From contig NIVC01003322.1 in the NCBI GenBank assembly GCA_002269645.1, forward strand, positions 1 to 64,000: 64,000 bases of DNA, in the 5' to 3' direction. This document shows positions 1 to 32,566 of this stretch, piece after piece. This DNA comes from Macrostomum lignano. Taxonomy: Eukaryota. Position 1 is the stretch's first letter, and the number at the start of each line of letters is the position of its first letter. The translations under genes and the position numbers were made by a program. The notes below the pieces were generated by a model that saw only the letters and a program-made list of their open reading frames with translations, did no database searches and was not told the origin of the DNA.

Positions 1-1445
1 TCTTCTATTCGCTATTATCGTGACTCTCTTCTCTCTCCTCTCTCTCATCTCATCTCTGCCTACTCTATTAATCTCTCCACTCATTTCTACTCTGTTTTCT
101 ATCATCTCATCTCTCTTCTCTTTTCAATTCTTCTCTTACTCTCTCTCTGACTGATTGAAGATGCCAAATCCATCAAGATCCTCTCGCGAAGCGAAATCCT
201 GTCGTGCAACTGAAACCATCGAAATCCTCTCCGTGAAACTGGACTCCTTCGAAATCCTCTCCTTGAAACTTAAATCATCAAAATCGTCTCCATAAAACAG
301 AAATCAATCATTAATTTATCTCCGCGAAACAGAAATCCTCTCCGTGAAGCTGAACATCATCGAAATCCTCTCCGTGAAACTGAACACCATCGAAATCCTC
401 TCCACGAAACAGAAATCCTCTCCGTCAAAATTAAAACATTGAAATCGTCTCCGCTAAACTGACTCAATCGAATTTTTTGCCGTCAAACAACTCAACTCTC
501 CGGATTCATTGGTTAGGGTTAGGGTTAGGGTTAGGTTAGAACTACGCACAGCTTCGTGTTAAAAGGCACTGATAAAAATATTGAACTAATTGAATCAATT
601 CATTGCGCAACCGATTTCACAGTCAGTCAGTATCAGCCTCAGTAAAGTTAAGAAAAACATTGCGCAATCTAAATCAACCTCCAATACACAGCAGCAGTGA
701 GAAGTTGAACTCCCCCAACTTATCTATTCACGTCTCGCAAAACTGAGTACAATTTTTGCAGAAAGTTAAAAGTATGGAAATAGTTTTTCAATGCTGTGCT
801 TTTTCTTTTCATATTTAAAGCAAACAATTTATATCCCTGAAATCAGCTTTGCAAGTTCTTTCCAGCAATATAATTTTTTCTCTCAAAGTTAAAACTCGAG
901 CAACAGTTTGCGTTTGAAACTTTCTGATTTAAAGCATTGAAATATCGATTGTACGTTCACTGCCTGCTAAAGAGGCCCGCAAGTTTATGCATTGAATTTC
1001 AAGGTTCAACAAAATCACAGGGCTGCCTATTGAAAATTAGAACACAAATCTTTGCGCAATTGTCTATACAGTCAGCCAGTGAGCCAGGTCCGATTGTACA
1101 CAGGCAGCCATTTAGAACGCCCCATCCCCCACTGAGAGAAAATACACTGCAGAGATAGGGAAAAGTTGTGGCGCAATCACTTGAAATTCATGCAAATTTT
1201 CAGCTCCAAGCAGAAAGAGGGACAATTAAGATTATCAAAGGTCAAGACCGCCGTTTTCTGCTTTTTTGAGGATCTTAGAAATTAAAATTTCAGAATTAAA
1301 ATAGCCTATAGCCGACCTCGGATAATTTCCAATCTTCCCATATAAGTTTCAACGCTGAGTTGGCACTATTCAAGGAGGAGTTGTCGAAATGACAGACAGA
1401 CACACAGACAGACAGACAAACAACGCGTCAACTTATATATATAGA
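1..1445 (-). mobile_element. Non-autonomous Helitron unit U1 (3' part outside window)
   Basis: End of CT-rich tract, GAAATCCTCTCCGTGAAACTGAACACCATC minisatellite, TTAGGG tract 511-539, AT-rich core, 5' TC at 1,445. Confidence 0.85.
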
Positions 1446-1449
1446 TATA

Positions 1450-4220
1450 CGAGTGGAACTCCTCCTTCGGAGGAGAAAGGGAAGAACTCCCATCACCGGA
1501 ATTCTATTCCCTGAAATATCCATCAACTGAAATTCCATGTCTTTAACCCTATCTTCCAAATCGTCTCCAAATTCTTTACAAAAATCTTTCAAAGACCATA
1601 GCTCAAAGACTCTTACGTCTCTCATATCTACTCTCTCCTCTCTTCGCTATTATCGTGACTCGCTTCTCTCTCCTCTCTCTCATCTCATCTCTACCCCTAC
1701 TCTCTTATTTATCTCTACTCCCTTATTTATCTCTTCTCCCTCGTCTTTCGTCTGTACCCTATCCTGTCTACTCTCCTATCTTCTATCTTATCTCTCCCCT
1801 TTTCTCTCCTCTCTCATATCTAATCTCTAATCACTTATCTATCGTCTCCGCTCTACTTTCTCTCTTCTTTTTTCTCTCTTCTCTCTGCTCTCATTTCTCG
1901 TATCTCTTATACGCTCTCACCCTCTCCTTTCTTATCTCCCATCTTTCTTCCCTCCTTTCTACTGCATCACCTGTCTCCTCTCTTCTCTTTTCTCTCCTCT
2001 CCATTCTCTCTTCTCTACTCTCATCTCCCCTCATCTCTTCTCTAATCTCTAATCTCTTCTCTCTCTTATTTTCTCACTCATCTCTTTTCTCATTGCATCT
2101 CTCATCTCTCCTCTCTCTCTCTCCTCTCATCTGTACTATCTTTTTTATCTCTTCTCCCAGGTCTTTCAAATTTACTCTCTCCTGTCTCCTCTCTCCCTCG
2201 TCTTTCCTCTCTCATATCTCTTCTCTACTCACTTATATATTCTCTCTCCTCTGCTCCCCTTTTACACTTTCCTATATGCTCTCACTCTCACCCTCCCCTT
2301 TCTTATCTGCTGTTTTTACACTCCTTTCTACCACCTGTCTCCTCTCGTTTCTCTCCTCTCTGCACTCTCATCTTTACCCTCTTCTTTCTCCTCACTACTT
2401 TCTTCTCTTAAATCTCTGATCTCTGATCTTTCATCTCTCTCCTCTCACCTCTCACCTCTCTCCTCTCTTTCCTCTCTTCTATTGCCTCTGTACGCTCTTG
2501 TCCCTCCTTTCTTCTCCATCCTGTCTCCTCTCTGCAATCTCATATCTCCTCTCTCATATCCTCTCCCTTCATCTCCTCTCTCCTCTTCTCTTCTCTCTCC
2601 TTCGTTCCCGCCTTACTTTCCTCTTCTCTCCCATCTGTCATGTCTAATCTCTCCACTCATTTCTACTCTGTTTTCTATCATCTCATCTCTCTTCTCTTTT
2701 CATTCTTCTCTTTACTCTCTTCTCTGACTGATTGAAGATGCCAAATCCATCAAGATCCTCTCCGCGAAGCAGAAATCCTGTCCGTGCAACTGAAAACCAT
2801 CGAAATCTTCTCCGTGAAACTGGACTCCTTCGAAATCCTCTCCTTGAAACTTAAATCCATCAAAATCGTCTCCATAAAACAGAAATCAATCATAAATTAT
2901 CTCCGCGAAACAGAAATCCTCTCCGTGAAGCTGAACATCATCGAAATCCTCTCCGTGAAACTGAACACCTTCGAAATCCTCTCCGTGAAACTGAACACCT
3001 TCGAAATCCTCTCCTTGAAACTTAAATCTATCAAAATCGTCTCCATAAAGCAGAAATCAATCATAAATTTAACTCCGCGAAACAGAAATCCTCTCCGTGA
3101 AGCTGAACATCATCAAAATCCTCTCCGTGAAACTGAGCACCATCGAAATCCTCTCCACGAAACAGAAATCCTCTTTGTCAAAATTAAAACATTGAAATCG
3201 TCTCCGCTAAACTGGACTCAATCAATTTTTTCCGTCAAACAACTCAACTCTCCGGATTCATTGGTTAGGGTTAGGGTTAGGGTTAGAACTACGCACAGCT
3301 TCGTGTTAAAAGGCACTGATAAACTATTGAACTAATTGAATCAATTCATTGCGCAACCGATTTCACAGTCAGTCAGTATCAGTCTCAGTTAAAGTTAACA
3401 AAAACATTGCGCAATCTAATCAACCCTCCAATACAAAGCAACTGACCCCCTTCCTATACACAGCGCCAGTTAGAAGTCGAAACCCCCAACTTTATCTCTC
3501 ACCTCTCGCCAAAATGAGTACAATCTTTGCAGAAAGTTTAAAGTATGGAAATAGTTTTTGCAATGCAGAGCTTTTAGTTTTCATATTTGAAGCAAACAAT
3601 TTATATCCCTGAAATCAGCTTTGCAAGTTCTATCCAGCAATATAAATTTTTTTCTCAAAGTTAAAAACTCGAGCAACAGTTTGCGTTTGAAACTTTCTGA
3701 TTTAAAGCATTGAAATATCGATTGTACGTTCACTGCCTGCTAAAGAGGCCCGCAAGTTTATGCATTGAATTTCAAGGTTCAACAAAATCACAGGGCTGCC
3801 TATTGAAAATTAGAACACAAATCTTTGCGCAATTGTCTATACAGTCAGCCAGTGAGCCAGGGTCCGATTGTACACAGGCAGCCATTTAGAACGCCCCATC
3901 CCCCCACTGGAGAGAAAATACACTGCAGAGATAGGGAAAAGTTGTGGCGCAATCACTTGAAATTCATGCAAATTTTCAGCTCCAAGCAGAAAGAGGGGAC
4001 AATTAAGATTATCAAAGGTCAAGACCGCCGTTTTCTGCTTTTTTGAGGATCTTAGAAATTAAAATTTCAGAATTAAAATAGCCTATAGCCGACCTCGGAT
4101 AATTTCCAATCTTCCCATATAAGTTTCAACGCTGAGTTGCCACTATTCAAGGAGGAGTTGTCGAAATGACAGACACACAGACAGACATACAGACAAACAA
4201 CACGTCAACTTTAGTATATA
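1450..4220 (-). mobile_element. Non-autonomous Helitron unit U2
   Basis: Hairpin/CTCG end at 1,450; CT tract ~1,600-2,728; minisatellite; TTAGGG 3,263-3,286; core; 5' end at 4,220. Confidence 0.85.
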
Positions 4221-6426
4221 CGAGTGGAACTCCTCCTCCGGAGGAGAAAGGGGAAGAACTCCCATCACCGGAATTCTATTCCCTGAAATATCCATCAACT
4301 GAAATTCCATGTCTTTAACCCTATCTTCCAAATCGTCTCCAAATTCTTTACAAAATCTTTCAAAGACCATAGCTCAAAGACTCTCAAGTCTCTCATATCT
4401 CCTCTCTCCTCTCTTTCATCTCATCTCTACCCCTGTTCCCTTATTTATCTCTTCTCCCTCGTCTTTCGTCTGTACCTTCTCCTGTCTTCTGTCTCCTCTC
4501 TTCACTCTTATCTCTCCCTCTTCTCTCCTCTCTCATATGTCATCTCTACTCACTTATCTATCGTCTCTCTTAACCCTCTCTCTCTCTTCTCTTTTCTCTT
4601 CTCTCTGCTCTCATTTCTCATATTTCATATACGCTCTGACACTACTTTCTTGTCTCCCATCTTTCTTCCTCCTTTTCACTATCCCCTGTCTCTTCTCTTC
4701 TCTCTTTTCTATTCTCTCCATTCTCTCTTTTCTCCTTTCCTTGCTCCTTTCATCTCTCTCCTCTCTCCTCACTCTCTTCTCCTTTCGCTTCTCTCTCCTC
4801 TCTCTCCTCTCATCTTTACTACCTTATTTATATCTTCTCCCTAGTCTTTCGTCTGTACTCTCTCCTGTCTCCTCTCTCCCCTCCTCTCTCATCCCTCATC
4901 TCCTCATCTCCTCATCTCACTCTTTCTTTCTCCTCTACTCTCCCCTCTCTTCTATTGCCTCTGTACGCTCTTATCCCTCATCTATTCTCTCTCCTATCAT
5001 CTCCAATCTGTCATGTCTAATCTCTCCACTCAATTATACTCTGTTTTCTATCATCTCTTCTCTCTTCTCTTTTCAGTCTTCTCTTTACTCTCTTCTCTGA
5101 CTGATTGAAGATGCCAAATCCATCAAGATCCTCTCCGCGAAGCAAAAATCCTGTCTGTGCAACTAAAAACCATCGAAATCCTCTCGTGAAACTGGACTCC
5201 TTCGAAATCCTCTCCTTGAAACCTGAATCCATCAAAATTGTTTCCATAAAACAGAAATCAATCATAAATTATCTCCGCGAAACAGAAAGCCTCTCCGTGA
5301 AGCTGAACATGATCGAAATCCTCTCCGTGAAACTGAACACCATGGAAATCCTTTCGTGAAACTGAACATCATCGAAATCCTCTCCACGAAACAGAAATCT
5401 TCTCCGTCAGAATTTAAACATTGAAATCGTCTCCGCTAAACTTGACTTAATCGAATTTTTTCCGTCAAACAACTCAACTCGCCAGATTCATTAGGGTTAG
5501 GGTTAGGGTTAGGGTTAGAACTACGCACAGCTTCGTGTTAAAAGGCACAGATAAAAATATTGAACTAATTGAATCAATTCATTGCGCAACCGATTTCACA
5601 GTCAGTCAGTATCAGCCTCAGGTAAAGTTAACAAAAGATTGCGCAATCTAAATCAACCCTCCAATCCACAGCTGTAGTGAGAAGTTGAACCCTCCCCCCA
5701 ACTTTATCTATTACGTCTTGCAAAACTGAGTACAATATTTGCAAAAAGTTAAAAGTATGGAAATAGTTTTCCAAATGCTGTGCTTTTTCTTTTCATAGTT
5801 AAAACAAACAACTTATATCCCCGAACTCAGCGTTGCAAGATCTTGCCAGCAATATAAGTATCTCCTCTCAAAGTTTAAAACTCGAGGAACAGCTAGCGTT
5901 TGAAACTGTCTGATTTATAGCATTGAAGTATCGAGTGTACGTTCACTGCCTGCTTGCAAGTTGATGCATTGAATTTCAATGTCCAACAAATACACAGGAC
6001 TGCCCATTGATAGGCAGGAAAACTTATCAGTAGCCACATCATTGCGCAATTATCTATAAAGTCAGCCAGTGAGCCAGGGTCCAATTGTACACACGCCGCC
6101 AATGAGAACGCGCCCATTCCCCTACAGGAGAGAAAATGCACTGGCGACATAGGAAAAAGTTGTGGCGTAATCACTCAAAATTTATGCCAATTTTCAGCTC
6201 CGAGCAGAAAGAGGGGACAATTAAGATTATCAAAGGTCAAGACCGCCGTTTTCTGCTTTTTTAGGGATCTTAAAAATTGAAAATGAAAGATTAAAATAGC
6301 CTAAAGCCATCCTCGGAAAATTTGCAGTTTTCCCATATAAGTTTCAACGCTGAGTTGCAAGTATTCTAGGAGGAGTTATCGAACTGACATACAGACAGAC
6401 AAACAACGCGTCAACTTTAGTATATA
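4221..6426 (-). mobile_element. Non-autonomous Helitron unit U3 (near-identical to U6)
   Basis: Same modules; (TTAGGG)4 at 5,491-5,518; spurious ORFs at 4309 and 5893 match those at 18391 and 19967 almost residue for residue. Confidence 0.85.
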
Positions 6427-8016
6427 CGAGTGGAACTCCTCCTTCGGAGGAGAAAGGGGAAGAACTCCCATCACCGGAATTCCATTCCCTGAAATCCATC
6501 AGCTGAAACTCCATGACTTGAATCCCATCTTCCAAATCGTCTCCAAATTCTTTACAAAATTTTGAAAGACCATAGCTCAAAGACTCTCACGTCTCTCATA
6601 TCTCCTCTCTCCTCTCTTCGCTATTATCGTGACTCGCTTCTCTCTCCTCTCTCTCCTCTCATCTCTACCCCTACTCCCTTATTTATATCTTCTCCCTGGT
6701 CTTTCGTCTCTACTCTCTCCTGTCTCATTTCTCCCCTCTTTTCTCCTCTCTTCTCTCTCCCCTCTCCTCCCTCATCTCTCATCCTTCATCTCACTCTTTC
6801 TTTCTTCTCTACTCTCCCCTCTCATCTATTTCCCCTGTACGCTCTTATCCCTCATCTCTATTCTCTCTCCTATCATCTCTCCAAATTCTTTACAAAACCT
6901 TTCAAAGACCATAGCTCAAAGACTCTCACGTCTCTCATATCTCCTCTCTCATATCTCTTCCCTCATCTCACTCTTTCTTTCTCCTCTACTCTCCCCTCTC
7001 TTCTATTTCCTCTGTACGCTCTTATCCGTCATCTATTCTCTTTCCTATTATCTCTCTTGTCTCCCTCTGCTATCTCATATCTCCCCTCTCATCTCCTCTC
7101 TCCTCTTCTCTTCTCTCTCCCTCTTCGTTTCCGCCTTACTCCCCTCTTCTCTTCCATCGGTCATGTCTAATCTATCCACTCATTTCTACTCTGTTTTATA
7201 CCATTTCATGTCTCTTCTCTTTTCGATCTTCTCTTTACTCTCTTTTATGACTGATTGAAGATGCCAAATCTATCAAGATCCTCTCCGCGAAGCAGAAATC
7301 CTCTCCGTGAAACTGAAAACCATTGAAATCCTCTCCGCGAAACAGAAATCCTCTCCGTGAAACTGAAAACCATCGAAATTATCTCTTTAAAACTGGACTC
7401 AATCGAAATTTTCTCCGTCAAAAAGAATAAAATATTAGGATTCATTGGTTAGGGTTATTGTTAGGGTTAGGGTTAGGGTTAGAGCTACACACAGCTGCGT
7501 GTTTAAATAAAAAATTGAGCCAATTGAATCAATTGATAGCGCAACCGATTTCAAAGTCAGTCAGTATCAGTCTCAGTTAAAGTGAACAAAAAGATTGCGC
7601 AATTTAAATCAACCCTCCAGTACACAGAGACCGGCCCCTTTTCAATACGCAGTGGCAGTTAGAAATTGAACCCGGGTGTTGGGGCATTGAACTAAAAATG
7701 AGTACAATCTTTGCAGAAAGCTAAAAGTATGGAAATAGTTTTTGTATGCTGTGCTTTTAGTCTTTATATTTAAAGCAAACAATTTATATCCTCGAACTCA
7801 GCGTTGCAAGATCTTTTCAGCAGTATAAGTCTCTTCTCTTAAAGTTTAGAACTCGAAGAGCAGTTAGCGTTTGAAAGTTCCCGTTTTAAAGCATTGAAAT
7901 ATCGAGTATACGTTCACTGCCTGCCAAAGAGGCTCGCAAGTTTATTCATTCATTACACAGGCCGGCTATTACACAGGGCAGCCTATTAAAAGGCACAGAT
8001 AATGAAACAAATTGAT
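6427..8016 (-). mobile_element. Non-autonomous unit U4, lacking its 5' end (deletion junction at ~8,016)
   Basis: Hairpin end at 6,427; CT tract with internal duplication (6,545/6,885); TTAGGG 7,447-7,482; core breaks at AAACAAATTGATG. Confidence 0.8.
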
Positions 8017-8058
8017 GTCTCTATCTTCTCATGTCTCATGAGAGATGTCTCAAATTGA

Positions 8059-10597
8059 CATCTCTACCCCTACTCTCTTATTTATCTCTACTCCCTTATT
8101 TATCTCTTCTCCCTCGTCTTTCGTCTGTACCCTATCCTGTCTACTCTCCTATCTTCTATCTTATCTCTCCCCTTTTCTCTCCTCTCTCATATCTAATCTC
8201 TAATCACTTATCTATCGTCTCCGCTCTACTTTCTCTCTTCTTTTTTCTCTCTTCTCTCTGCTCTCATTTCTCGTATCTCTTATACGCTCTCACCCTCTCC
8301 TTTCTTATCTCCCATCTTTCTTCCCTCCTTTCTACTGCATCACCTGTCTCCTCTCTTCTCTTTTCTCTCCTCTCCATTCTCTCTTCTCTACTCTCATCTC
8401 CCCTCATCTCTTCTCTAATCTCTAATCTCTTCTCTCTCTTATTTTCTCACTCATCTCTTTTCTCATTGCATCTCTCATCTCTCCTCTCTCTCTCTCCTCT
8501 CATCTGTACTATCTTTTTTATCTCTTCTCCCAGGTCTTTCAAATTTACTCTCTCCTGTCTCCTCTCTCCCCTCGTCTTTCCTCTCTCATATCTCTTCTCT
8601 ACTCACTTATATATTCTCTCTCCTCTGCTCCCCTTTTACACTTTCCTATATGCTCTCACTCTCACCCTCCCCTTTCTTATCTGCTGTTTTTACACTCCTT
8701 TCTACCACCTGTCTCCTCTCGTTTCTCTCCTCTCTGCACTCTCATCTTTACCCTCTTCTTTCTCCTCACTACTTTCTTCTCTTAAATCTCTGATCTCTGA
8801 TCTTTCATCTCTCTCCTCTCACCTCTCACCTCTCTCCTCTCTTTCCTCTCTTCTATTGCCTCTGTACGCTCTTGTCCCTCCTTTCTTCTCCATCCTGTCT
8901 CCTCTCTGCAATCTCATATCTCCTCTCTCATATCCTCTCCCTTCATCTCCTCTCTCCTCTTCTCTTCTCTCTCCTTCGTTCCCGCCTTACTTTCCTCTTC
9001 TCTCCCATCTGTCATGTCTAATCTCTCCACTCATTTCTACTCTGTTTTCTATCATCTCATCTCTCTTCTCTTTTCATTCTTCTCTTTACTCTCTTCTCTG
9101 ACTGATTGAAGATGCCAAATCCATCAAGATCCTCTCCGCGAAGCAGAAATCCTGTCCGTGCAACTGAAAACCATCGAAATCCTCTCCGTGAAACTGGACT
9201 CCTTCGAAATCCTCTCCTTGAAACTTAAATCCATCAAAATCGTCTCCATAAAACAGAAATCAATCATAAATTTATCTCCGCGAAACAGAAATCCTCTCCG
9301 TGAAGCTGAACATCATCGAAATCCTCTCCGTGAAACTGAACACCTTCGAAATCCTCTCCGTGAAACTGAACACCTTCGAAATCCTCTCCTTGAAACTTAA
9401 ATCTATCAAAATCGTCTCCATAAAGCAGAAATCAATCATAAATTTAACTCCGCGAAACAGAAATCCTCTCCGTGAAGCTGAACATCATCAAAATCCTCTC
9501 CGTGAAACTGAGCACCATCGAAATCCTCTCCACGAAACAGAAATCCTCTTTGTCAAAATTAAAACATTGAAATCGTCTCCGCTAAACTGGACTCAATCAA
9601 TTTTTTCCGTCAAACAACTCAACTCTCCGGATTCATTGGTTAGGGTTAGGGTTAGGGTTAGAACTACGCACAGCTTCGTGTTAAAAGGCACTGATAAACT
9701 ATTGAACTAATTGAATCAATTCATTGCGCAACCGATTTCACAGTCAGTCAGTATCAGTCTCAGTTAAAGTTAACAAAAACATTGCGCAATCTAAATCAAC
9801 CCTCCAATACAAAGCAACTGACCCCCTTCCTATACACAGCGCCAGTTGGAAGTCGAAACCCCCAACTTTATCTCTCACCTCTCGCCAAAATGAGTACAAT
9901 CTTTGCAGAAAGTTTAAAGTATGGAAATAGTTTTTGCAATGCAGAGCTTTTAGTTTTCATATTTGAAGCAAACAATTTATATCCCTGAAATCAGCTTTGC
10001 AAGTTCTTTCCAGCAATATAAATTTTTTCTCTCAAAGTTAAAAACTCGAGCAACAGTTTGCGTTTGAAACTTTCTGATTTAAAGCATTGAAATATCGATT
10101 GTACGTTCACTGCCTGCTAAAGAGGCCCGCAAGTTTATGCATTGAATTTCAACGTTCAACAAAATCACAGGGCTGCCTATTGAAAATTAGAACACAAATC
10201 TTTGCGCAATTGTCTATACAGTCAGCCAGTGAGCCAGGGTCCGATTGTACACAGGCAGCCATTTAGAACGCCCCATCCCCCCACTGGAGAGAAAATACAC
10301 TGCAGAGATAGGGAAAAGTTGTGGCGCAATCACTTGAAATTCATGCAAATTTTCAGCTCCAAGCAGAAAGAGGGGACAATTAAGATTATCAAAGGTCAAG
10401 ACCGCCGTTTTCTGCTTTTTTGAGGATCTTAGAAATTAAAATTTCAGAATTAAAATAGCCTATAGCCGACCTCGGATAATTTCCAATCTTCCCATATAAG
10501 TTTCAACGCTGAGTTGCCACTATTCAAGGAGGAGTTGTCGAAATGACAGACAGACACACAGACAGACAGACAAACAACGCGTCAACTTTAGTATATA
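8059..10597 (-). mobile_element. Non-autonomous unit U5, lacking its 3' hairpin end (near-identical to U2)
   Basis: CT tract matches U2 and U7 (ORF 8031 vs 1655 and 20707); TTAGGG 9,638-9,661; 5' end at 10,597. Confidence 0.82.
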
Positions 10598-10606
10598 CGA
10601 GGCCAA

Positions 10607-10623
10607 CTCCTCCTCCGGAGGAG
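10607..10623 (-). other. Helitron 3' terminator hairpin (also at 1459-1475, 4230-4246, 6436-6452, 18312-18328, 31184-31200 and the other junctions)
   Basis: CTCCTCC-(TCC/TTC/GAT)-GGAGGAG: perfect 7-bp stem with variable 3-nt loop, 9 nt from the 3' terminus. Confidence 0.85.
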
Positions 10624-11895: not shown

Positions 11896-11935
11896 TATTT
11901 CTGTCATTTGAGTCTGTTAATTCAATTGAGTCTAA

Positions 11936-20502: not shown

Positions 20503-23038
20503 CGAGTGGAACTCCTCCTTCGGAGGAGAAAGGGGAAGAACTCCCATCACCGGAATTCTATTCCCTGAAATATCCATCAACTGAAATTCCATGTCTTTAA
20601 CCCTATCTTCCAAATCGTCTCCAAATTCTTTACAAAATTTTGAAAGACCATAGCTCAAAGACTCTTACGTCTCTCATATCTACTCTCTCCTCTCTTCGCT
20701 ATTATCGTGACTCGCTTCTCTCTCCTCTCTCTCATCTCATCTCTACCCCTACTCTCTTATTTATCTCTACTCCCTTATTTATCTCTTCTCCCTCGTCTTT
20801 CGTCTGTACCCTATCCTGTCTACTCTCCTATCTTCTATCTTATCTCTCCCCTTTTCTCTCCTCTCTCATATCTCATCTCTAATCACTTATCTATCGTCTC
20901 CGCTCTACTTTCTCTCTTCTTTTTTCTCTCTTCTCTCTGCTCTCATTTCTCGTATCTCTTATACGCTCTCACCCTCTCCTTTCTTATCTCCCATCTTTCT
21001 TCCCTCCTTTCTACTGCATCACCTGTCTCCTCTCTTCTCTTTTCTCTCCTCTCCATTCTCTCTTCTCTACTCTCATCTCCCCTCATCTCTTCTCTAATCT
21101 CTAATCTCTTCTCTCTCTTATTTTCTCACTCATCTCTTTTCTCATTGCATCTCTCATCTCTCCTCTCTCTCTCTCCTCTCATCTGTACTATCTTTTTTAT
21201 CTCTTCTCCCAGGTCTTTCAAATTTACTCTCTCCTGTCTCCTCTCTCCCCTCGTCTTTCCTCTCTCATATCTCTTCTCTACTCACTTATATATTCTCTCT
21301 CCTCTGCTCCCCTTTTACACTTTCCTATATGCTCTCACTCTCACCCTCCCCTTTCTTATCTGCTGTTTTTACACTCCTTTCTACCACCTGTCTCCTCTCG
21401 TTTCTCTCCTCTCTGCACTCTCATCTTTACCCTCTTCTTTCTCCTCACTACTTTCTTCTCTTAAATCTCTGATCTCTGATCTTTCATCTCTCTCCTCTCA
21501 CCTCTCACCTCTCTCCTCTCTTTCCTCTCTTCTATTGCCTCTGTACGCTCTTGTCCCTCCTTTCTTCTCCATCCTGTCTCCTCTCTGCAATCTCATATCT
21601 CCTCTCTCATATCCTCTCCCTTCATCTCCTCTCTCCTCTTCTCTTCTCTCTCCTTCGTTCCCGCCTTACTTTCCTCTTCTCTCCCATCTGTCATGTCTAA
21701 TCTCTCCACTCATTTCTACTCTGTTTTCTACCATCTCATCTCTCTTCTCTTTTCATTCTTCTCTTTACTCTCTTCTCTGACTGATTGAAGATGCCAAATC
21801 CATCAAGATCCTCTCCGCGAAGCAGAAATCCTGTCCGTGCAACTGAAAACCATCGAAATCCTCTCCGTGAAGCTGAACATCATCGAAATCCTCTCCGTGA
21901 AACTGAACACCATCGAAATCCTCTCCACGAAACAGAAATTTTCTCCGTCAAAATTAAAACATTGAAATCGTCTCCGCTAAACTGGACTTAATCGAATTTT
22001 TTCCGTCAAACAACTCAACTCTCCGGATTGGTTAGGGTTAGGGTTAGGGTTAGGGTTAGAACTACGCACAGCTTCGTGTTAAAAGGCACTGATAAAAATA
22101 TTGAACTAATTGAATCATTTCATTGCGCAACCGATTTCACAGTCAGTCAGTATCAGTCTCAGTTAAAGTTAACAAAAACATTGCGCAATATAAATCAACA
22201 CTCCAATACACAGTAGCAGTGAGAAGTTGAACCCTCCCCCCCCCAACTTTATCTATTACGTCTCGCAAAACTGAGTACAATCTTTGCAGCAAGTTAAAAG
22301 TATGGAAATAGTTTTTTCAAATGCTGACATGCTGTGCTTTTTCTTTTCATATTTAAAGCAAACAACTTATATCCCCGAACTCAGCGTTGCAAGATCTTTC
22401 CAGCAATATAAGTCTCTCCTCTCAAAGTTTAAAACTCGAGGAACAGTTAGCGTTTGAAATTTACCGATTTCCCGACTGCTTGCTAGAGATAGAGAAGCTC
22501 GCAAGTTTATTCATTGAATTTCACTGCCAAACTAATACACAGGGCTGCCTATGGAAAAAAAGGCGCCAATAATAAAACCAAATGAATCTCGACACAGTCT
22601 ATCTATTTACACTGTACAACTGCTATGTACACTCAACTCAAGCCCAACCCCTGTTCTGGGGGAAGCATTAACTTTAACTCAACCCCCCCAACACGCGGGG
22701 GGTTTTATTTGCATTGAACGCAGAACACGCGCACCCACCACCCCTCAATACACAGCGGCCCCGCGGGCGGAGGTTGGGGTGGCTATTTTTACAAACTGGC
22801 TGCAGCCCCAGGCAGAGTAGCAAAAGAAGGTTATTGGGGGTCAAAAAGGCAGTTTTCTGCTTTTTTAAGGATCTTAGAAATTAAAATTTCAGAATTAAAA
22901 TAGCCTATAGCCGACCTCGGATAATTTCCAATCTTCCCATATAAGTTTCAACGCTGAGTTGGCACTATTCAAGGAGGAGTTGTCGAAATGACAGACAGAC
23001 ATACAGACAGACAAACAACGCGTCAACTTTAGTATATA
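20503..23038 (-). mobile_element. Non-autonomous chimeric unit U7
   Basis: U2-type CT tract; TTAGGG 22,030-22,059; segment ~22,560-22,800 resembles the autonomous element's 5' region (17,860-18,070) but ends in the common TATATACTAAAG-type 5' end. Confidence 0.8.
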
Positions 23039-25453
23039 AGTGGAACTCCTCCTTCGGAGGAGAAAGGGGAAGAACTCCCATCACCGGAATTCCATTCCCT
23101 GAAATATCCATCAACTGAAATTCCATGTCTTGAACCCTATCTTCCAAATCGTCTCCAAATTCTTTACAAACCTTTCAAAGACTATAGCTCAAAGACTCTT
23201 ACGTCTCTCATATCTCCTCTCTCCTCTCTTCGCTATTATCTTGACTCTCTTCTCTCTCCTCTCTCTCTTCTCATCTCTACTCCCTTTATCTATCTCTTCT
23301 CCCTCGTCTTTCGTCTCTACTTTCTCCTTTCTCCTCTTCTCTCTCATCTCTCATCTGTACTCTTTTTCTTTCTCCTCTACTCTCTCCTCTTCTATTTCCT
23401 CTGTACGCTCTTATCCCTCCTCTCTTCTTTCTCCTCTTATCTCTCCTGTCTCCTCTTTGCTATCTTATATCTCCCCTCCCATCTCCTCTCTTCTTTTCTC
23501 TTCTCTCTCCTTCGTTCCCGCCTTACTCCCCTCTTCTCTCCCATCTGGCATGTCTAATCTCTCCACTCATTTCTACTCTGTTTTCTATCATCTCATCTCT
23601 CTTCTCTTTTCATTCTTTTCCTTACTCTATTCTCTGACTGATTGAAGATGCCAAATACATCAAGATCCTCTCCGCGAAGCAGAAATCCTGTTCGTGCAAC
23701 TGAAAACCATCGAAATCCTCTCCGTGAAACTGGACTCCTTCGAAATCCTCTCCTTGAAACCTGAATCCATCAAAATTGTTTCCATAAAACAGAAATCAAT
23801 CATAAATTATCTCAGCGAAACAGAAAGCCTCTCCGTGAAGCTGAACATGATCGAAATCCTCTCCGTGAAACTGAAGACCATGGAAATCCTTTCGTGAAAC
23901 TGAACATCATCGAAATCCTCTCCACGAAACAGAAATCTTCTCCGTCAGAATTTAAACATTGAAATCGTCTCCGCTAAACTTGACTTAATCGAATTTTTTC
24001 CGTCAAACAACTCAACTCGCCAGATTCATTAGGGCTAGGGTTAAGGTTAGGGTTAGGGTTAGGGTTAGAACTACGCACAGCTTCGTGTTAAAAGGCACTG
24101 ATAAAAATATTGAATTAATTGAATCAAATCATTGCGCAACCGATTTCACAGTCAGTCAGTATCAGTCTCAGTTAAAGTTAACAAAAACATTGCGCAATCT
24201 AAATCAACCCTCCAATACACAGCAGCAGTGAGAAGTTGAACCCTCCCCCAACTTTATCTATTACGTCTCGCAAAACTGAGTACAATTTTTGCAGAAAGTT
24301 AAAAGTATGGAAATAGTTTTTTAAATGCGGTGCTTTTTCTTTTCATATTTAAAGCAAACAACTTATATCCCTAAACTCAGCGTTGCAAGATCTTTCCAGC
24401 AATATAAGTCTCTCCTCTCAAAGTTTAAAACTCAAGGAGCAGTTAGCGTTTGAAATTTACCGATTTCCCGACTGCTTGCCTGAGAGGCTCGCAATTTTGT
24501 ACATTGAATTTCACTGCCAAGCTAATACACAGGGCCGATAATAAAAAAGCTAACCAATTGAATCAATTGATTGCGCAATATATTTCTGTGTTAGTCAGTA
24601 TAAGTCTCAGTTAAAGTTAACAAAAAGTTTGCGCAATCTAATCAACCCTCCAATACAAAGCAACTGACCCCCTTCCTATACACAGCGCCAGTTAGAAGTC
24701 GAAACCCCCAACTTTATCTCTCACCTCTCGCCAAAATGAGTACAATCTTTGCAGAAAGTTTAAAGTATGGAAATAGTTTTTGCAATGCAGAGCTTTTAGT
24801 TTTCATATTTGAAGCAAACAATTTATATCCCTGAAATCAGCTTTGCAAGTTCTTTCCAGCAATATAAATTTTTTCTCTCAAAGTTAAAAACTCGAGCAAC
24901 AGTTTGCGTTTGAAACTTTCTGATTTAAAGCATTGAAATATCGATTGTACGTTCACTGCCTGCTAAAGAGGCCCGCAAGTTTATGCATTGAATTTCAAGG
25001 TTCAACAAAATCACAGGGCTGCCTATTGAAAATTAGAACACAAATCTTTGCGCAATTGTCTATACAGTCAGCCAGTGAGCCAGGGTCCGATTGTACACAG
25101 GCAGCCATTTAGAACGCCCCATCCCCCCACTGGAGAGAAAATACACTGCAGAGATAGGGAAAAGTTGTGGCGCAATCACTTGAAATTCATGCAAATTTTC
25201 AGCTCCAAGCAGAAAGAGGGGACAATTAAGATTATCAAAGGTCAAGACCGCCGTTTTCTGCTTTTTTGAGGATCTTAGAAATTAAAATTTCAGAATTAAA
25301 ATAGCCTATAGCCGACCTCGGATAATTTCCAATCTTCCCATATAAGTTTCAACGCTGAGTTGCCACTATTCAAGGAGGAGTTGTCGAAATGACACACACA
25401 CACACACACACACAGACAGACAGACAAACAACACGTCAACTTTAGTATATATA
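23039..25453 (-). mobile_element. Non-autonomous unit U8 with short CT tract and duplicated core
   Basis: TTAGGG variants 24,029-24,068; core restarts at ~24,552. Confidence 0.8.
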
Positions 25454-25663
25454 CAGACAAACAACGCGTCAACTTTAGTATATATAGATAGATAGATAGA
25501 AAATTTCAGAATTAAAATAGCCTATAGCCGACCTCGGATAATTTCCAATCTTCCCATATAAGTTTCAACGCTGAGTTGCCACTATTCAAGGAGGAGTTGT
25601 CGAAATGACAGACAGACACACAGACAGACAGACAAACAACGCGTCAACTTTAGTATATATAGA
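25454..25663 (-). mobile_element. Two stacked Helitron 5'-end stubs (47 bp and 163 bp)
   Basis: The 5'-terminal sequence repeats at 25,454-25,500 and 25,501-25,663 without body or 3' hairpin. Confidence 0.8.
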
Positions 25664-25665
25664 TA

Positions 25666-26096: not shown

Positions 26097-26157
<61 letters not shown>

Positions 26158-28433
26158 CTCTCTGCTCTCATTTCTTATATCTCATATACGGTCTCAGACT
26201 CTACTTTCTTGTCTCCCATCTTTCTTTCCTCCTTTCCACTACCCCCGTCTCTTCTCTTCTCTCTTTTCTAATCTCTAATCTCTTCTCTCTTATGTTCTCA
26301 CTCATCTCTTCTCCTCGCATCTCTCATCTCTCCTCTCCTCACTACTTCCCTCTCTTAACTCTCTCATCTCTGATTTTTCATCTCTCTCCTCTCTCCTCTC
26401 GCTCTTTTCCTTTCGCTTCTCTCTCCTCCCTCTCCTCTCATCTCTACTACTTTATTTATATCTTCTCCCTCGTCTTTCGTCTCTACTCTCGTCTGTCTCC
26501 TTTCTCCCCTTTTTTCTCCTCTTTTCTCTCTTCTCTCTCCGCTCCTCTCTCATCTCTCATCCCTCATCTCACTCTTTCTTTCTCCTCTACTCTCCCCTCT
26601 CTTCTATTTCCTCTGTACGCTCTTATCCTTCATCTATTCTCTCTCCTATTATCTCTCTTGTCTCCCTTTGCTATCTCATATATCCACTCTTATCTCCTCT
26701 CTCCTCTTCGCTTTTCTGTCCTTCGTTCCCGCCTTAATCCCTCTTCTCTCCCATCTGTCATGTCTAATCTCTCCACTCATTTCTACTCTGTTTTCTACCA
26801 TCTCATATCTCTTCTCTTTTCATTCTTCTTTTTATTCTCTTCTCTGACTGATTGAAGATGCCAAATCAATCAAGATCCTCTCCGCGAAGCAGAAATCCTG
26901 TCCGTGCAACTGAAAACCATCGAAATCCTCTCCGTGAAACTGAAGAGAATCGAAATCCTCTCCGCGAAACAGAAATCCTCTCCGTGAAACTGAAAACCAT
27001 CGAAATTCTTTCTTTTAAACTGGACTCAATCGAAATTTTCTCCGTCAAAAAGAATAAATATCAGGATTCATTGGTTATTGTTAAGGGTTAGGGTTAGGGT
27101 TAGAGCTACACACAGCTGCGTGTTCAAATAAAAAATGAACCAATTGAATCAATTGATTGCGCAACCGATTTCACAGTCAGTCAGTATCAGTCTCAGTTAA
27201 AGTTAGCAAAAAAATTGCGCAATCTAAATCAACCCTCCAGTACACAGAGACCGACCCCTTTTCAATACGCAGTGGCAGTTAGAAATTGAACCTCAAACTT
27301 TTGGGGGCATTGAACAAAAAATGAGTACAATCTTTGCATAAAGCTAAAAGTATGGAAATGGTTTTTTGAAACATTTTATATCCTCGAACTCAGCGTTGCA
27401 AGATCTTTTCAGCAGTATAAGTCTCTTCTCTTAAAGTTTAGAACTCGAAGAGCAGTTAGCGTTTGAAAGTTCCCGTTTTAAAGCATTGAAATATCGAGTA
27501 TACGTTCACTGCCTGCCAAAGAGGCTCGCAAGTTTATTCATTCATTACACAGGCCGGCTATTACACAGGGCAGCCTATTGAAAGGCACAGATAATAAAAC
27601 AAAATTGATGGCGCAACTGATTTCACAGTATGTCAGTATCAGTCTCAGTTACAGTTAACAAAAAGATTGCGCAATCTAAATCAACCCTCCAATACACAGC
27701 GCCCGACCGCCTTCCACTACGCAGTGGCAATTAGCAATTGAACCCCCCAAATTTATCTCTGACCTATCGCAAAAATAAGTACAATCTTTGCAGCAAGTTA
27801 AAAGTAAAAGTAATAAAATCGTTTTTTGAATGCTGTGCTTTTAATTTTTACAGTTAAAGCAAACAACTTATATCCCTGAACTCAGCGTTGCAAGATCTTT
27901 CCAGCAATATAAGTCTCTCCTCTCAAAGTTCAAAAATCGAGCAACAGTTAGCATTTGAAACTTTCTGATTTAAAGCATTGAAATATCGAGTGTACGTTCA
28001 CTGCCTGCTAGAGAGGCTCGCAAATTGATGCATTGAATTTCACTGTCCGCCAGTTAGCTAGGGTCCAAGTGTACACACGCCGCCACTGAGAACGCTCCTA
28101 TCCCCCACTGGAGAGAAAATACACTGCCAAGTTAGCAAAATTTTATGGCGCAATCACTTAAAATTCATGCAAATTTTCAGCTCCAAGCAGAAAGAGGGGA
28201 CAATTAAGATTATCAAAGGTCAAGACCGCCGTTTTCTGCTTTTTTGAGGATCTTAGAAATTAAAATTTCAGAATTAAAATAGCCTATAGCCGACCTCGGA
28301 TAATTTCCAATCTTCCCATATAAGTTTCAACGCTGAGTTGCCACTATTCAAGGAGGAGTTGTCGAAATGACACACACACACACACACACACAGACAGACA
28401 GACAAACAACACGTCAACTTTAGTATATATAGA
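25666..28433 (-). mobile_element. Non-autonomous unit U9 (duplicated core)
   Basis: (CT)n run at ~26,100-26,150; TTAGGG 27,073-27,103; core restarts at ~27,601; 5' TC at 28,433 joined exactly to CTCG. Confidence 0.85.
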
Positions 28434-31132
28434 CGAGTGGAACTCCTCCTTCGGAGGAGAAAGGGGAAGAACTCCCATCACCGGAATTCCATTCCCTGAA
28501 ATCCATCAGCTGAAACTCCACTTGAATCCCATCTTCCAAATCGTCTCCAAATTCTTTACAAAATCTTTGAAAGACCATAGCTCAAAGACTCTCACGTCTC
28601 TCATATCTCCTCTCTCTTCTATTCGCTATTATTGTGACTCTCTTCTCTCTCCTCTCTCTCTCATCTCATCTCTACCCGTACTCCCTTATTTATGTTTTAT
28701 CCCTCGTCTTTCGTCTGTACCCTCTCCTGTCTCTTGTCTCCTCTCTTCTCTCATATCTCTCCTCTTCACTTCTGTCTCCTGTCTTCTCTCTTCTCTCTTA
28801 TCTCTCCCTCTTCTCTCCTCTTTTATATGTCATCCCTATTCACTTATCTATCGTCTCTCTTAACCCTCTCTCTCTTCTCTTTTCTTTCCTCTCTGCTCTC
28901 ATTTCTCATATCTCATATACGCTCTCACACTCCACTTACTTGTCTCCAATCTTTCTTTCCTCCTTTCCACTTTTCCCTGTCTCTTCTCTTCTCTCTTTTC
29001 TATCCTCTCCATTCTCTCTTTTCTCCTCCCTTGCTCCTTTTATCTTCTCCCCTCTCTTCTCTAATCTCTTCTCTCTTCTCTCTTATGTTCTCACTCATCT
29101 CTTTTTATCGCATCTCTCATCTCTCCTCTCCTCACTACTTTCCTCTCTTAACTCTCTTATCTATTTCATCTCTCTCCTCTCTCCTCTTTCTCTTCTCCTC
29201 TCGCTTCTTCTCTCGCTTCTCTCTCCTATCTCTCCTCTCATCTCTACTACCGTATTTATATCTTCTAACTGGTCCTTCGTCTCTACTCTCTCCTTTCTCC
29301 TTTCTCCCCTCTTTTCTCCTTTCTTGTCTCTCCTGTCTCCCCTCCTCTCTCATCCCTCATCCCCTCATCTCACTCTTTCTTTCTCCTCTACTCTCCCCTC
29401 TCTTCTATTTTCTCTGTACGCTCTTATCCCTAATCTATTTTCTCTCCTCTCTCCTCTTTTCTACTCTCTCCCTCTTCGTTCCCGCCTAAATCCCCTCTTC
29501 TCTCCAATCTGTCATGTCTAATATCTCCACTTATTTCTACTCTGTTTTCTATCATCTCATCTCTCTTCTGCTTTCATTCTTCTCTTTACTCTTTTCTCTG
29601 ACTGATTGAAGATGCCAAATCCATCAAGATCCTCTCCGCGAAGCAGAAATCCTGTCCGTGCAACTGAAAACCATCGAAATTCTCTCTTTTAAACTGGACT
29701 CAATCGAAATTTTCTCCGTCAAAAAAAATAAATATCAGGATTCATTGGTTAGGGTTATTGTTAGGGTTAGGGTTAGGGTTAAAGCTACACAGCTGCGTGT
29801 TCAAATAAAAATTGAACCAATTGAATCAATTGATTGCGCAACCGATTTCTCAGTCAGTCAGTATCAGTCTCAGTTAAAGTTAACAAAAAGATTGCGCAAT
29901 CTAAATCAACCCTCCAGTACACAGAGACCGACCTCTTTTCAATACGCAGTAGCAGTTAGAAATTGAACGCCGAACTGTTGGGGGCATTGAACCAAAAAAT
30001 GAGTACAATCTTTGCATAAAGCTAAAAGTATGGAAATAGTTTTTTTGATGCTGCTCTTTTAGTCTTTACATTTATAGCAAACAATTTATATCCTCGAACT
30101 CAGCGTTGCAAGATCTTTTCAGCAGTATAAGTATCTTCTCTTAAAGTTTAGAACTCGAAGAGCAGTTAGCGTTTGAAAGTTCCCGTTTTAAGGCATTGAA
30201 ATATTGCGTGTACGTTCACTGCCTGCCAAAGAGGCTCGCAAATTTATTCATTCATTACACAGGCTGGCTATTACACAGGGCAGCCTATTGAAAGGCACAG
30301 ATAATAAAACAAATTGATGGCGCAACCGATTTCACAGTCAGTCAGTATCAGTCTCAGTTAAAGTTAAGAAAAACATTGCGCAATCTAAATCAACCCTCCA
30401 ATACACAGCGCCCGACCGCCTTCCACTACGCAGTGGCAATTAGCAATTGAACCCCCCAAATTTATCTCTGACCTATCGCAAAAATAAGTACAATCTTTGC
30501 AGCAAGTTAAAAGTAAAAGTAATAAAATCGTTTTTTGAATGCTGTGCTTTTAATTTTTACAGTTAAAGCAAACAACTTATATCCCTGAACTCAGCGTTGC
30601 AAAATCTTTCCAGCAATATAAGTCTCTCCTCTCAAAGTTCAAAAATCGAGCAACAGTTAGCATTTGAAACTTTCTGATTTAAAGCATTGAAATATCGAGT
30701 GTACGTTCACTGCCTGCTAGAGAGGCTCGCAAATTGATGCATTGAATTTCACTGTCCGCCAGTTAGCTAGGGTCCAAGTGTACACACGCCGCCACTGAGA
30801 ACGCTCCTATCCCCCCACTGGAGAGAAAAAACACTGCCAAGTTAGCAAAATTTTATGGCGCAATCACTTAAAATTCATGCAGATTTTCAGCTCCAAGCAG
30901 AAAGAGGGGACAATTAAGATTATCAAAGGTCAAGACCGCCGTTTTCTGCTTTTTTGAGGATCTTAGAAATTAAAATTTCAGAATTAAAATAGCCTATAGC
31001 CGACCTCGGATAATTTCCAATCTTCCCATATAAGTTTCAACGCTGAGTTGGCACTATTCAAGGAGGAGTTGTCGAAATGACAGACAGACACACAGACAGA
31101 CAGACAAACAACGCGTCAACTTTAGTATATAC
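28434..31132 (-). mobile_element. Non-autonomous unit U10 (core near-identical to U9)
   Basis: TTAGGG 29,747-29,781; core restarts at ~30,311; 5' end abuts a (GATA)n run at 31,133-31,170. Confidence 0.85.
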
Positions 31133-31171
<39 letters not shown>

Positions 31172-31174
31172 GAG

Positions 31175-32566
31175 AGAGGCCAACTCCTCCGATGGAGGAG
31201 AAAGGGGAAGAACTCCCATCACCGGAATTCCATTCCCTGAACTCCATCAGCTAGATCCCAAGACCCGAATATCATCATCTAACTGTTCTCCAAAACCATC
31301 AAAATCCTCTCCATGAAACTGAACACCATCGAAATCCTCTCCGCAAAACAGAAATCCTCTCCGTGCAACTGAAAACCATCGAAATCCTCTCCGCGAAACA
31401 GAAATCCTCTCCGTGAAACTGAAAACCATTGAAATCCTCTCCGCGAAACAGAAATCCTCTCCGTGAAACTGAACACCATCGAAATTCCCTCTATTAAACT
31501 GGACTCAGTCGAATTTTTCTCCGTCAAAAAGAATAAAATATTAGGATTCATTTGTTAGGGTTAGGGTTAGAGCTACACACAGCTGCGTGTTAAAAGGCAC
31601 TGGTAAAAAATTTGAACCAATTGAATCAATTGATTGTGCAACCAATTGATTGTGCAACCGATTTCTCCGTCAGTCAGTATCAGTCTCAGTTAAAGGTACC
31701 AAAAAGATGGCGCAATCTAAATCAACCGTCCAATGCACAGCGACCAACCCCCTTCCAATACGCAGTGGCAGCTAGAAATTAACACCCTCCCTAACTGCTG
31801 GGGGGTCGATCATACCCCATTGAACCCCCCAAAATGAGTTACAATCTTTGCAAAAAGTTAAAAGTATGGAAGTTTTTTGAATGCCGTGCTTTTAGTTTTC
31901 ATATTTAAAGCAAACAACTTATATCCCCGAACTCAGCGTTGGAAGACCTTTCCAGCAATATAAGTCTCTACTCTCAAAGTTTAAAACTCGAGGAACAGTT
32001 GGCGTTTGAAATTTACCGATTTCCCAACTGCTTGCTAGAGAAGCTCGCAAGTTTATTCTTAAATTTCAGTGCCCAGCCAATAACACAGGGCTGCGTCTTG
32101 AAAGACGCCAATAATAAAACCAATTGAATCTCGACACAGTCTATCTGTTTACACTGTACAACTGCTATGTACACTCAGCCCAAGCCCAACCCCCGTTCTG
32201 GGGGAAGCATTAAATTTAACTCAACCCCCCCAACACGCGGGGGTTTTATTTGCATTGAACGCAGAACACGCGCACCCACCACCCCACAAATACACAGCGA
32301 CCCGCGGGCGGAGGTTGGGGTGGCTATTTTTACAAACAGACTGCCAACTCTCTTACTGGAAAGACAGAAGGGCCAAAGAAGGTTAAAAGCAGTTTTCTGT
32401 TTTTTTAGGGATGTTAAAATGTGAAAATTAAAAATTAAAATAGCCTAAAGCCTGATCCGGAAAATTTTCTGTTTTCCCATATAAGTTTCGACGCTGACTT
32501 GCCAGTTGTCTAGGAGAAAAATCGCAACACAAACACACAATCATCGCACCAGTTTTAGTATTAAGA
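31175..32566 (-). mobile_element. Non-autonomous unit U11 (no CT tract; termini of the autonomous type)
   Basis: GAGGCCAACTCC 3' end as at 10,600; minisatellite follows the terminal module almost directly; TTAGGG 31,555-31,570; 5' region matches 17,860-18,301. Confidence 0.82.

Follow-up and report, generated by a model that had tools for sequence, protein, structure and literature searches.

Short TTAGGG tracts within the non-coding units of a Helitron-like array in Macrostomum lignano

Helitrons, tandem repeats and interstitial telomeric sequences

Tandem-repeat cargo is usual in Helitron-type elements, as the accessible text of several papers describes (PMC12001565, PMC4067079, PMC7492417). 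The Xenopus Heli1Xen and Heli2Xen families, according to the available part of their description, resemble the locus analysed here in having a RepHel-coding copy, many shorter non-coding partners, tandem arrays and minisatellites in the terminal regions (PMC12001565). The string 'telomer' occurs 0 times in that paper, whereas a TTAGGG run is a fixed internal part of the units here. DINE-1/HINE Helentrons, for example Cg_HINE of Crassostrea gigas, are portrayed in excerpts as sharing a microsatellite near one end, central tandem repeats, a 3' stem-loop and dispersal of tandem repeats (PMC4067079, PMC7492417).

Short interstitial telomeric sequences (s-ITS) are, in the portions available, a few TTAGGG units within non-telomeric DNA, and spread by mobile elements is listed there as a possible mechanism (PMC7215372, PMC6410037). 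The tracts studied here are alike, 10 of 11 reaching four-unit length; mammalian s-ITS, as these sources present them, are single-locus insertions, whereas here one tract has been multiplied as part of a transposon. The Helitrons of Paramecium, Hydractinia/Nematostella and Oscheius, in the accessible text, also bring Helitron, satellites and telomere repeats into one neighbourhood (10.1101/2025.11.06.686955, PMC11934779, PMC8022731). Those elements sit at chromosome ends or enter telomeric repeats; here, in contrast, the element itself contains the repeats, and host genes adjoin the array. No description of a Helitron with a fixed internal TTAGGG run was found in the accessible open-licence literature, and the available portions of PMC6800518, PMC9071541 and PMC12801592 hold no Helitron-borne telomeric tract. 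The family described here is a concrete case of one telomeric tract as an inherited part of a transposon. Karyotypes in the genus Macrostomum are unstable, and its chromosome fusions leave no interstitial telomere signal that FISH can show, as partly accessible sources report (PMC5068713, PMC5519732), so that many telomere seeds below FISH resolution would be worth mapping against breakpoints.

A coding copy and its non-coding partners

The window is the whole 64,000-nucleotide stretch of contig NIVC01003322.1 that was analysed. Head-to-tail units occupy positions 1–32,743 on the minus strand, the array being cut by the left window edge. A single copy in it codes for RepHel; the non-coding units number 11, in 10 junction-bounded stretches of which one is composite (6,426–10,596, a unit without its 5' end plus a unit without its 3' end). 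The units form two subfamilies, A and B, and two near-identical duplications are present: 1,686–4,310 with 8,059–10,684 (99% identity) and 4,027–6,697 with 18,126–20,775 (96.5%). The features of the coding copy are as follows.

10,597–18,302, minus strand: RepHel-coding copy; spliced gene at about 17,557–11,936 with STPR, Helitron_like_N, PIF1 and Pif1_2B domains; TTAGGG tract absent
10,597–10,705, minus strand: terminal part of the coding copy at its 3' end; hairpin with a 7-bp stem some 10 nt from the terminus; motif at 10,662–10,679 matching the minisatellite core at 14 of 18 positions
10,709–10,733, plus strand: possible decayed or proto-tract; aligns with the distal tract end and right flank, 17 of 24 to subfamily B
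10,734–10,876, plus strand: conserved box common to the coding copy and all units (70–76%); starts about 50–75 nt right of each tract
11,539–11,890, no strand assigned: a minisatellite of another kind (14/20 bp) within the coding copy's 3' region

In the coding copy, Pfam models PF14214, PF05970 and PF21530 all score above cut-off (Helitron_like_N, E 6.6e-52; PIF1, 2e-32), the RGLPH and YxxKY motifs are present as in homologues, and the closest proteins are from Macrostomum lignano, with 83–94% identity. Proteins of other RepHel subfamilies are 83–86% and about 65% identical. By its predicted RepHel transposase (HUH Rep and Pif1-like helicase), the family is assigned to the Helitron superfamily. 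The earlier note called this copy autonomous. It does encode RepHel, but the search for a spliced frame open throughout from its first ATG found none and led to one frameshift near 16,310–16,330, upstream of Rep; between 16,329 and the stop codon at 11,936, about 1,220 codons can be read in an open spliced frame.

At the right end of the array (32,743) the 5' end begins with TC and is preceded by a host A, an insertion site visible on one side only within the window. Several internal junctions also begin with TC, and 3 of 10 begin with TATATAC instead. In all four 3' ends that were folded, a 17-nt hairpin with a 7-bp stem lies 8–10 nt from the end (folding z -0.9 to -2.0). Junctions inside the array end in CTCG or CACT, not CTRR; this applies to array-internal ends only, the host-abutting 3' end being outside the window. 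The 5' TC after a host A differs from the DINE-1/HINE pattern in the available descriptions, as do two negative results. No pair of subterminal inverted repeats joins both ends in U3 or U11, nor among the 25 longest of 115 inverted pairs in the coding copy, and no endonuclease domain follows the helicase among the frames scanned, the frame stopping after the helicase C-terminal domain at 11,936.

In the common box, the coding copy and the units share about 72% identity. Both ends of U11 are of the coding-copy type, its 5' 470 nt being 89% identical to that copy.

Anatomy of the TTAGGG tracts and their surroundings

We scanned the window for TTAGGG 16-mers and compared the result with 100 shuffles. 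The scan gave 31 matches, all within 11 tracts (shuffle mean 0.04), which bears out the tracts located by the earlier note; there were no matches in 10,597–18,302 or in 33–64 kb. The 11 tracts, which fall within 10 junction-bounded units, are listed below.

511–539, plus strand: U1, subfamily A, three G3 runs; minisatellite about 192–459; CT tract 1–150
3,263–3,286, plus strand: U2, subfamily A, three runs; minisatellite about 2,772–3,168; CT tract about 1,610–2,725
5,491–5,518, plus strand: U3, subfamily A, four perfect runs; minisatellite about 5,132–5,442; CT tract about 4,380–5,098
7,447–7,482, plus strand: U4, subfamily B, interrupted; unit without 5' end
9,638–9,661, plus strand: U5, subfamily A; 99% duplicate of U2; unit without 3' end
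19,565–19,592, plus strand: U6, subfamily A, four perfect runs; duplicate of U3
22,030–22,059, plus strand: U7, subfamily A, four perfect runs; longest perfect run, 30 nt
24,029–24,068, plus strand: U8, subfamily A, proximal variants
27,073–27,103, plus strand: U9, subfamily B, interrupted
29,747–29,781, plus strand: U10, subfamily B, interrupted; of the minisatellite, only a few degenerate monomers are left
31,554–31,570, plus strand: U11, subfamily B, two runs, 17 nt; CT tract absent

All tracts are on the plus strand, about 3 to 6.7 units long, with a longest perfect run of 17–30 nt. By the definition in the accessible text of PMC7215372 (at least four units, mismatches below one per unit, non-terminal), 10 of the 11 are s-ITS, and U11 has fewer than three units. 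The same element also contains a (GACA)n run. Unit anatomy and the homology of the site are directly observed: the tract occupies one homologous position in both subfamilies, with right flanks 86–100% and left flanks 70–100% identical across units. As judged by alignment, the tracts are homologous copies of a single origin, not 11 events, and their excess over chance is accordingly evidence for that one origin only. The units thus carry and multiply a short interstitial tract, as the earlier note had it.

Ten of the 11 units have a CT-rich tract ahead of the minisatellite, again as described earlier; this tract is an optional part of the cassette. Minisatellite-like sequence lies on both of its sides. 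The reported order of minisatellite and TTAGGG tract stands, but the two do not abut: the final exact core begins 100–119 nt ahead of the tract in 10 of 11 units, U10 has no exact core in the preceding 160 nt, and a non-repeat spacer of about 45 nt separates the last degenerate monomer from the tract.

Nine of the 10 visible 3' ends, that of the coding copy among them, contain a motif of the element's own that agrees with the minisatellite core at 13–14 of 18 positions; outside the arrays, core-like matches occur at only one place besides these ends. When the coding copy's end was shuffled 5000 times, 34 of the shuffles reached 14/18; the match is short and post hoc. In 4 of 4 CT-bearing units compared with two arrays, the stretch terminal to the CT tract could be aligned with the minisatellite (p 0.007–0.04). 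For the coding copy's segment (p 0.16–0.38) and against the U11 array (p 0.09–0.51), the longer alignment fell short of significance, and an ungapped 26-nt minisatellite profile had no match in the subterminal zone or the coding copy, where only the 18-nt core matched. In U11 and in contig joints (for example, 10,705 to minisatellite) the 3' end connects directly to the minisatellite. The minisatellite thus appears to resemble the element's own subterminal motif, that is, not to be foreign to the element.

Read contigs bear on the coding copy. One unbranched 290-nt contig, from runs of two studies, crosses the cassette site of the coding subfamily without a cassette. This coding subfamily therefore lacks it, which supports the earlier claim for the copy in the window and bears, for this one subfamily, on the question, raised with that claim, of whether other coding copies carry the cassette. 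The units may have gained the cassette, or the coding copy may have lost it. A joint from 10,656 to 9,705, the letters between its ends missing, hints at copies without a cassette. No clean empty orthologous site of the s-ITS kind was found: the coding copy, about 72% identical in the box, lacks the whole cassette, and its 10,709–10,733 resembles the tract end. Similarity to the coding copy appears to pick up again within the tract, which is suggestive only, and for three of five subfamily A targets another alignment scored best. A recognisable decayed tract in the coding copy was a weak candidate, as its best 24-mer match to (TTAGGG)n there (13/24) is below the element's maximum (14/24).

Among 24 of 536 contig loose ends listed, none is a long TTAGGG array (short-read contigs, 9,632–9,669 skipped). 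Cassette DNA patterns had 0 matches in metagenome, prokaryote and viral collections. A RepHel exon search gave two metagenome loci at 38–44% identity, neither with tandem TTAGGG or TTAGG and both too distant to weigh. In two read runs labelled as other organisms, there is coverage of the minisatellite, the spacer and the body of the unit but none of the 3' region of the coding copy, which proves no absence.

Origin and role of the tract

The reading that we consider likely is that the 3' end of the Helitron grew its own minisatellite and that the short TTAGGG tract, of single origin, is a passenger, probably present in many copies. The units would be non-autonomous Helitrons of a Macrostomum-like flatworm, copied in trans by the RepHel enzyme and multiplied further within the array by local duplication, with the 3' subterminal zone as a repeat-growing region. 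The 30/20-bp minisatellite may have arisen by tandem amplification of an 18-nt motif that lies some 65 nt inside the 3' end, after which a CT-rich tract would have entered or grown within the minisatellite region in most lineages. The TTAGGG run would then have arisen once at the inner border, before subfamilies A and B split, by telomerase-assisted break repair or by slippage from a TTAGGG-like seed. Telomerase-assisted break repair is an accepted route for short interstitial telomeric sequences, and the telomerase-healed break suggested earlier is plausible here, for one event and not eleven. Since then the tract would have been inherited as a passenger, slippage varying its length between about 3 and 6.7 units. 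We infer this order of events, the origin of the tract and its neutrality from the arrangement described above. If the tract is a passenger, it is a minor addition to Helitron anatomy.

In the proposal of the earlier note, the family took up its CT tract, minisatellite and first repeats together from a genuine subtelomere-telomere junction, for which read-through or a template switch at the end of a chromosome could be the route. The order of parts and the G-strand polarity fit, the coding copy lacks the block, and TTAGGG is the telomere repeat of M. lignano in the accessible text of PMC5068713. Variant repeats are mostly proximal, as at real telomere borders (in four interrupted tracts, three of which share one inherited variant; they are distal in two others), and, in the partial sources cited above, the Helitrons of Hydractinia, Nematostella, Oscheius and Paramecium accumulate at chromosome ends. 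However, the minisatellite resembles the element's own motif, the CT tract is optional, being absent from U11, the spacer interrupts the supposed junction, and similarity to the coding copy may start inside the tract. Minisatellites make up 19.5% of the ordinary flank (33–64 kb), so that one within a unit is not a subtelomere mark, and beyond the array the tracts point into 31 kb of gene-bearing DNA with no visible chromosome end. Capture of a junction is thus unlikely. An origin as leftover target site, the Helitron inserting into telomeric repeats, is very improbable: such repeats flank the Paramecium elements in the available text (10.1101/2025.11.06.686955), but they are absent from 10 of 10 visible junctions and from the right end of the array, which adjoins ordinary AT-rich DNA, and the tract lies 376–1,814 nt inside the 3' end and about 0.9–1.6 kb from the 5' end.

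We also asked whether the tract is a selected cis-element, aiding transposition, silencing escape or settling near chromosome ends through binding of a TRF-like protein or a quadruplex. It is kept in all 11 units of both subfamilies despite 11–30% flank divergence, with 2–4 copies per tract of TAGGGTT, which we take to be the telomere-protein half-site. Summed contig depth beside the tract is about 65–105 times that of the coding copy's 3' contig, depth being no copy number, and part of the human interstitial repeats serve as binding sites for TRF1 and TRF2 in the accessible text of PMC7215372. Yet the conservation check proposed in the earlier note went against selection: the 17-nt tract core has two changes among nine non-redundant units, 28 of 231 flank windows are equally quiet, and core conservation is not above that of the flanks in this comparison of nine related copies at one locus. 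Four perfect G3 runs occur in only three tracts (U3, U6 and U7, two of them duplicates) and three or fewer in 5 of 11; a standard four-run quadruplex, which the earlier note had envisaged where four G runs are present, could therefore form in 3 of the 11 tracts. The strand peeled off by the Helitron reads CCCTAA here, a strand that single-strand telomere proteins are not known to bind, which counts against selection. The joint from 10,656 to 9,705 points the same way, and non-autonomous copies far outnumber coding ones without such a tract in the available description of PMC12001565. A selected role is therefore doubtful. We give a similarly small chance to its furthest form, in which the tract is a working part that recruits a host telomere-binding protein to each copy, gives it a copying or targeting advantage over the coding partner, and seeds hundreds of genomic telomere-protein sites at which, after breaks, new telomeres could be primed or telomeres copied without telomerase.

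In parallel to the minisatellite of the units, the coding copy has grown a different minisatellite in its own 3' region.

Arrangement and common ancestry of the TTAGGG tracts

Each of the 11 non-coding Helitron units (U1–U11) contains one TTAGGG tract:

511–539, 3,263–3,286, 5,491–5,518, 7,447–7,482, 9,638–9,661, 19,565–19,592, 22,030–22,059, 24,029–24,068, 27,073–27,103, 29,747–29,781, 31,555–31,570; + strand; TTAGGG tracts

Scanning for (TTAGGG)n 16-mers with up to two mismatches gave 31 matches, every one within these tracts (0.04 expected from 100 shuffles). This confirms the positions in an earlier note, as well as its statement that the RepHel-coding copy (10,597–18,302, minus strand) contains none; there is also no match to the right of 31,570. 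The perfect runs within the tracts measure 17–30 nt, total length varies from fewer than 3 to 6.7 units, and variant repeats occupy the proximal side of four interrupted tracts. The reported order, in which a CT tract precedes the minisatellite, is found in 10 of 11 units; U11 skips the CT tract. In 10 units the last exact minisatellite core starts 100–119 nt ahead of the tract; in U10 the preceding 160 nt include no exact core. Read in the sense of the element, units run from the 5′ end through body, (CCCTAA)n, minisatellite and GA tract to the 3′ hairpin. FISH detected no interstitial telomere signal in M. lignano (PMC5068713 and PMC5519732), as expected for tracts this short.

The tract flanks are homologous across all units (right 86–100%, left 70–100%) and define subfamilies A (seven tracts) and B (four tracts). 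Two pairs of units are near-identical duplicates (99% over 2.6 kb; 96.5% over 2.7 kb), and two truncated units make up the composite stretch 6,426–10,596. Judged by sequence homology, the 11 tracts are one event, not eleven; the homologous flanks and duplicate pairs also bear out the proposal that the units multiply an interstitial tract. At 8,000–8,060, the joint between two truncated units contains short scrambled filler resembling a template switch.

Helitrons at chromosome ends are described for cnidarians, a nematode and Paramecium in parts of PMC11934779, PMC8022731 and 10.1101/2025.11.06.686955. In the Paramecium type, telomeric repeats belong to the target site (10.1101/2025.11.06.686955, in part), whereas here the tract lies 376–1,814 nt inward of the element 3′ end and at a junction in none of the units. 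Because of this position we rejected a target-site remnant, an extremely improbable origin. Tandem-repeat cargo like that of the present units is well documented for non-autonomous Helitrons and HINEs in sections of PMC12001565, PMC4067079 and PMC7492417, but searches of open-licence papers listed no Helitron in which a TTAGGG run is a fixed internal part.

Relation of the cassette to the coding copy

Coding copy and units share the last 100 nt of the 3′ end, as well as a box (10,734–10,876; 70–76%) starting immediately to the right of each tract. The cassette of CT tract, minisatellite and TTAGGG tract therefore stands in place of approximately 30–45 nt of the coding copy. Contigs from 4 of 22 listed short-read runs were compared over 9,440–11,530, on either side of the tract stretch 9,632–9,669; among the 24 of 536 loose ends listed, none is a long array. 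In X1 and X16, runs from different studies (X1 is possibly the assembly's own source), a single 290-nt contig crosses 10,671–10,960 with 0 differences, at a depth like that of neighbouring coding-copy contigs (837 versus 626–712 in X1; 74 versus 54–75 in X16). This coding subfamily therefore lacks the cassette beyond the window's copy, and the claim that the autonomous copy lacks it holds for this one coding subfamily. Summed depth beside the tract is ~100–106 times (X1) and ~64–67 times (X16) the depth of the coding contig, depth not being copy number. Minisatellite, spacer and unit body are likewise covered by contigs of X6 and X14, runs labelled with other organisms.

Positions 10,709–10,733 of the coding copy align with the last repeats and right flank of the tract (17/24), with p of 0.002–0.007 for three of four subfamily B targets and 0.03–0.13 for the remaining six of nine, three by a different alignment. 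This weakly suggests a seed already present before the tract, or what is left of a decayed one. Separately, contig variants of X1 and X16 have a G-rich stretch at a second unit-body site (loose ends before 9,885), which in X1 resembles two degenerate telomere repeats.

Origin of the cassette and possible roles of the tract

Nine of the 10 visible 3′ ends, the coding copy's included, match an 18-nt minisatellite core at 13–14/18 some 65 nt before the terminus; one other match lies outside the arrays. In a post hoc test, 34 of 5000 shuffles of the coding-copy end reached 14/18; a 26-nt minisatellite profile did not detect the subterminal site. In all four CT-bearing units, the stretch from hairpin to CT tract can be aligned to the minisatellite of two arrays (p 0.007–0.04), though not significantly to the U11 array, and the coding copy's own segment shows no significant alignment to the minisatellite. 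With a minisatellite-like segment beyond it, the CT tract thus seems to sit inside a minisatellite-like zone. Contig joints bypassing the CT tract lead from 10,656, 10,680, 10,694, 10,698 and 10,705 to the minisatellite (among 15 of 40 joints; sides only 28–35 letters where given). Minisatellites account for 19.5% of the sequence in the gene-bearing flank; a different one is present in the coding copy itself.

The earlier note read the cassette as a captured subtelomere–telomere junction. The tract polarity fits, TTAGGG is the M. lignano telomere repeat (PMC5068713, in part), and the proximal variant repeats also favour a chromosome end. Yet the core resembles the element's own subterminal motif, the segment beyond the CT tract seems minisatellite-like, the CT tract is optional, and minisatellites are common nearby; capture is quite unlikely. 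We consider it probable that the 3′ subterminal zone expanded its own motif into the minisatellite, took in the CT tract in most lineages, gained one short TTAGGG run and then copied it as a passenger, by rolling-circle copying and local duplication. The run could derive from telomerase-assisted break repair, a proposed route for short interstitial telomeric sequences (parts of PMC7215372 and PMC6410037), or from slippage on a similar seed; the suggested telomerase-healed break is kept as one of these two routes.

Selection of the tract as a protein-binding element is also unlikely. Each tract has 2–4 TRF-type half-sites by sequence count, so that double-strand binding by a TRF-like protein is possible. 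Single-strand telomere proteins favour the G-rich strand. The top strand, which Helitron transposase nicks and unwinds (10.1101/2025.11.06.686955, in part), is in these units the C-rich version. In humans, TRF1/2 bind some interstitial repeats (PMC7215372, in part). Conservation of the tract core is not unusual beside that of the flanks: the shared 17 nt have one substitution and one deletion across nine non-redundant units (an ungapped column count gives 7, owing to the deletion), and 28 of 231 flank windows show at most two variable columns. G-quadruplexes, suggested where four G runs are present, could form in some tracts: three of 11 have four perfect G3 runs (including one duplicate pair), another three combine four or five runs with a single 9-nt loop, and the other five have at most three.

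The flank contains further minisatellites and host genes:

45,276–45,455, 46,710–47,504, 48,109–48,685; 26/27-bp minisatellites, apparently in host-gene introns
48,778–52,438, 54,174–54,587, 62,405–63,094; host genes by domain matches (NHL-repeat, F5/8 type C (galactose-binding), PUB-like), amid long 27–31-bp minisatellites

The 26/27-bp arrays contain words like the Helitron subterminal motif and minisatellite, including eight occurrences of an 11-mer common with the Helitron arrays, and have no accompanying TTAGGG run. Related elements possibly seeded these arrays.

Helitron anatomy of the array

The coding copy contains a spliced minus-strand gene with Helitron_like_N, PIF1 and Pif1_2B, all above Pfam cut-offs; the best 3 of 864 Rep exon homologues are Macrostomum lignano proteins (83–94% identity), pointing to a Macrostomum flatworm as host. 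Homologue alignments shift frame near 16,310–16,330, from which the spliced frame stays open for ~1,220 codons to 11,936. This single frameshift, upstream of the Rep domain, may reflect mutation or an error of assembly. A GC-AG intron (15,330–15,223) interrupts the HUH motif 2 codons; an alternative GT donor 6 nt further preserves the frame and loses the motif.

On the minus strand, unit 3′ ends have a hairpin with a 7-bp stem followed by 8–10 nt (all four ends that were folded) and directly abut the next unit's 5′ end. The array 5′ end at 32,743 starts with TC, preceded by a host A. No subterminal inverted repeats joining both ends were found in U3 or U11, or among the 25 longest of 115 inverted pairs of the coding copy. 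These termini fit a canonical Helitron (as defined in part of PMC4067079), save that internal junctions have CTCG or CACT at the 3′ end instead of CTRR. Unit 3′ ends are of two types, and TC or TCTA repeats extend the 5′ ends to a varying degree, by up to ~45 nt (31,130–31,175). U8, U9 and U10 contain a tandem duplication of a ~450-bp internal module; U8 and U11 have duplicate 5′ terminal segments:

1,449, 18,303, 25,665, 31,176, right end 32,743; junctions and right end showing these 5′ and 3′ ends
24,104–24,926, 27,151–28,063, 29,829–30,447, 25,284–25,665, 32,472–32,729; duplicated module and 5′ terminal segments
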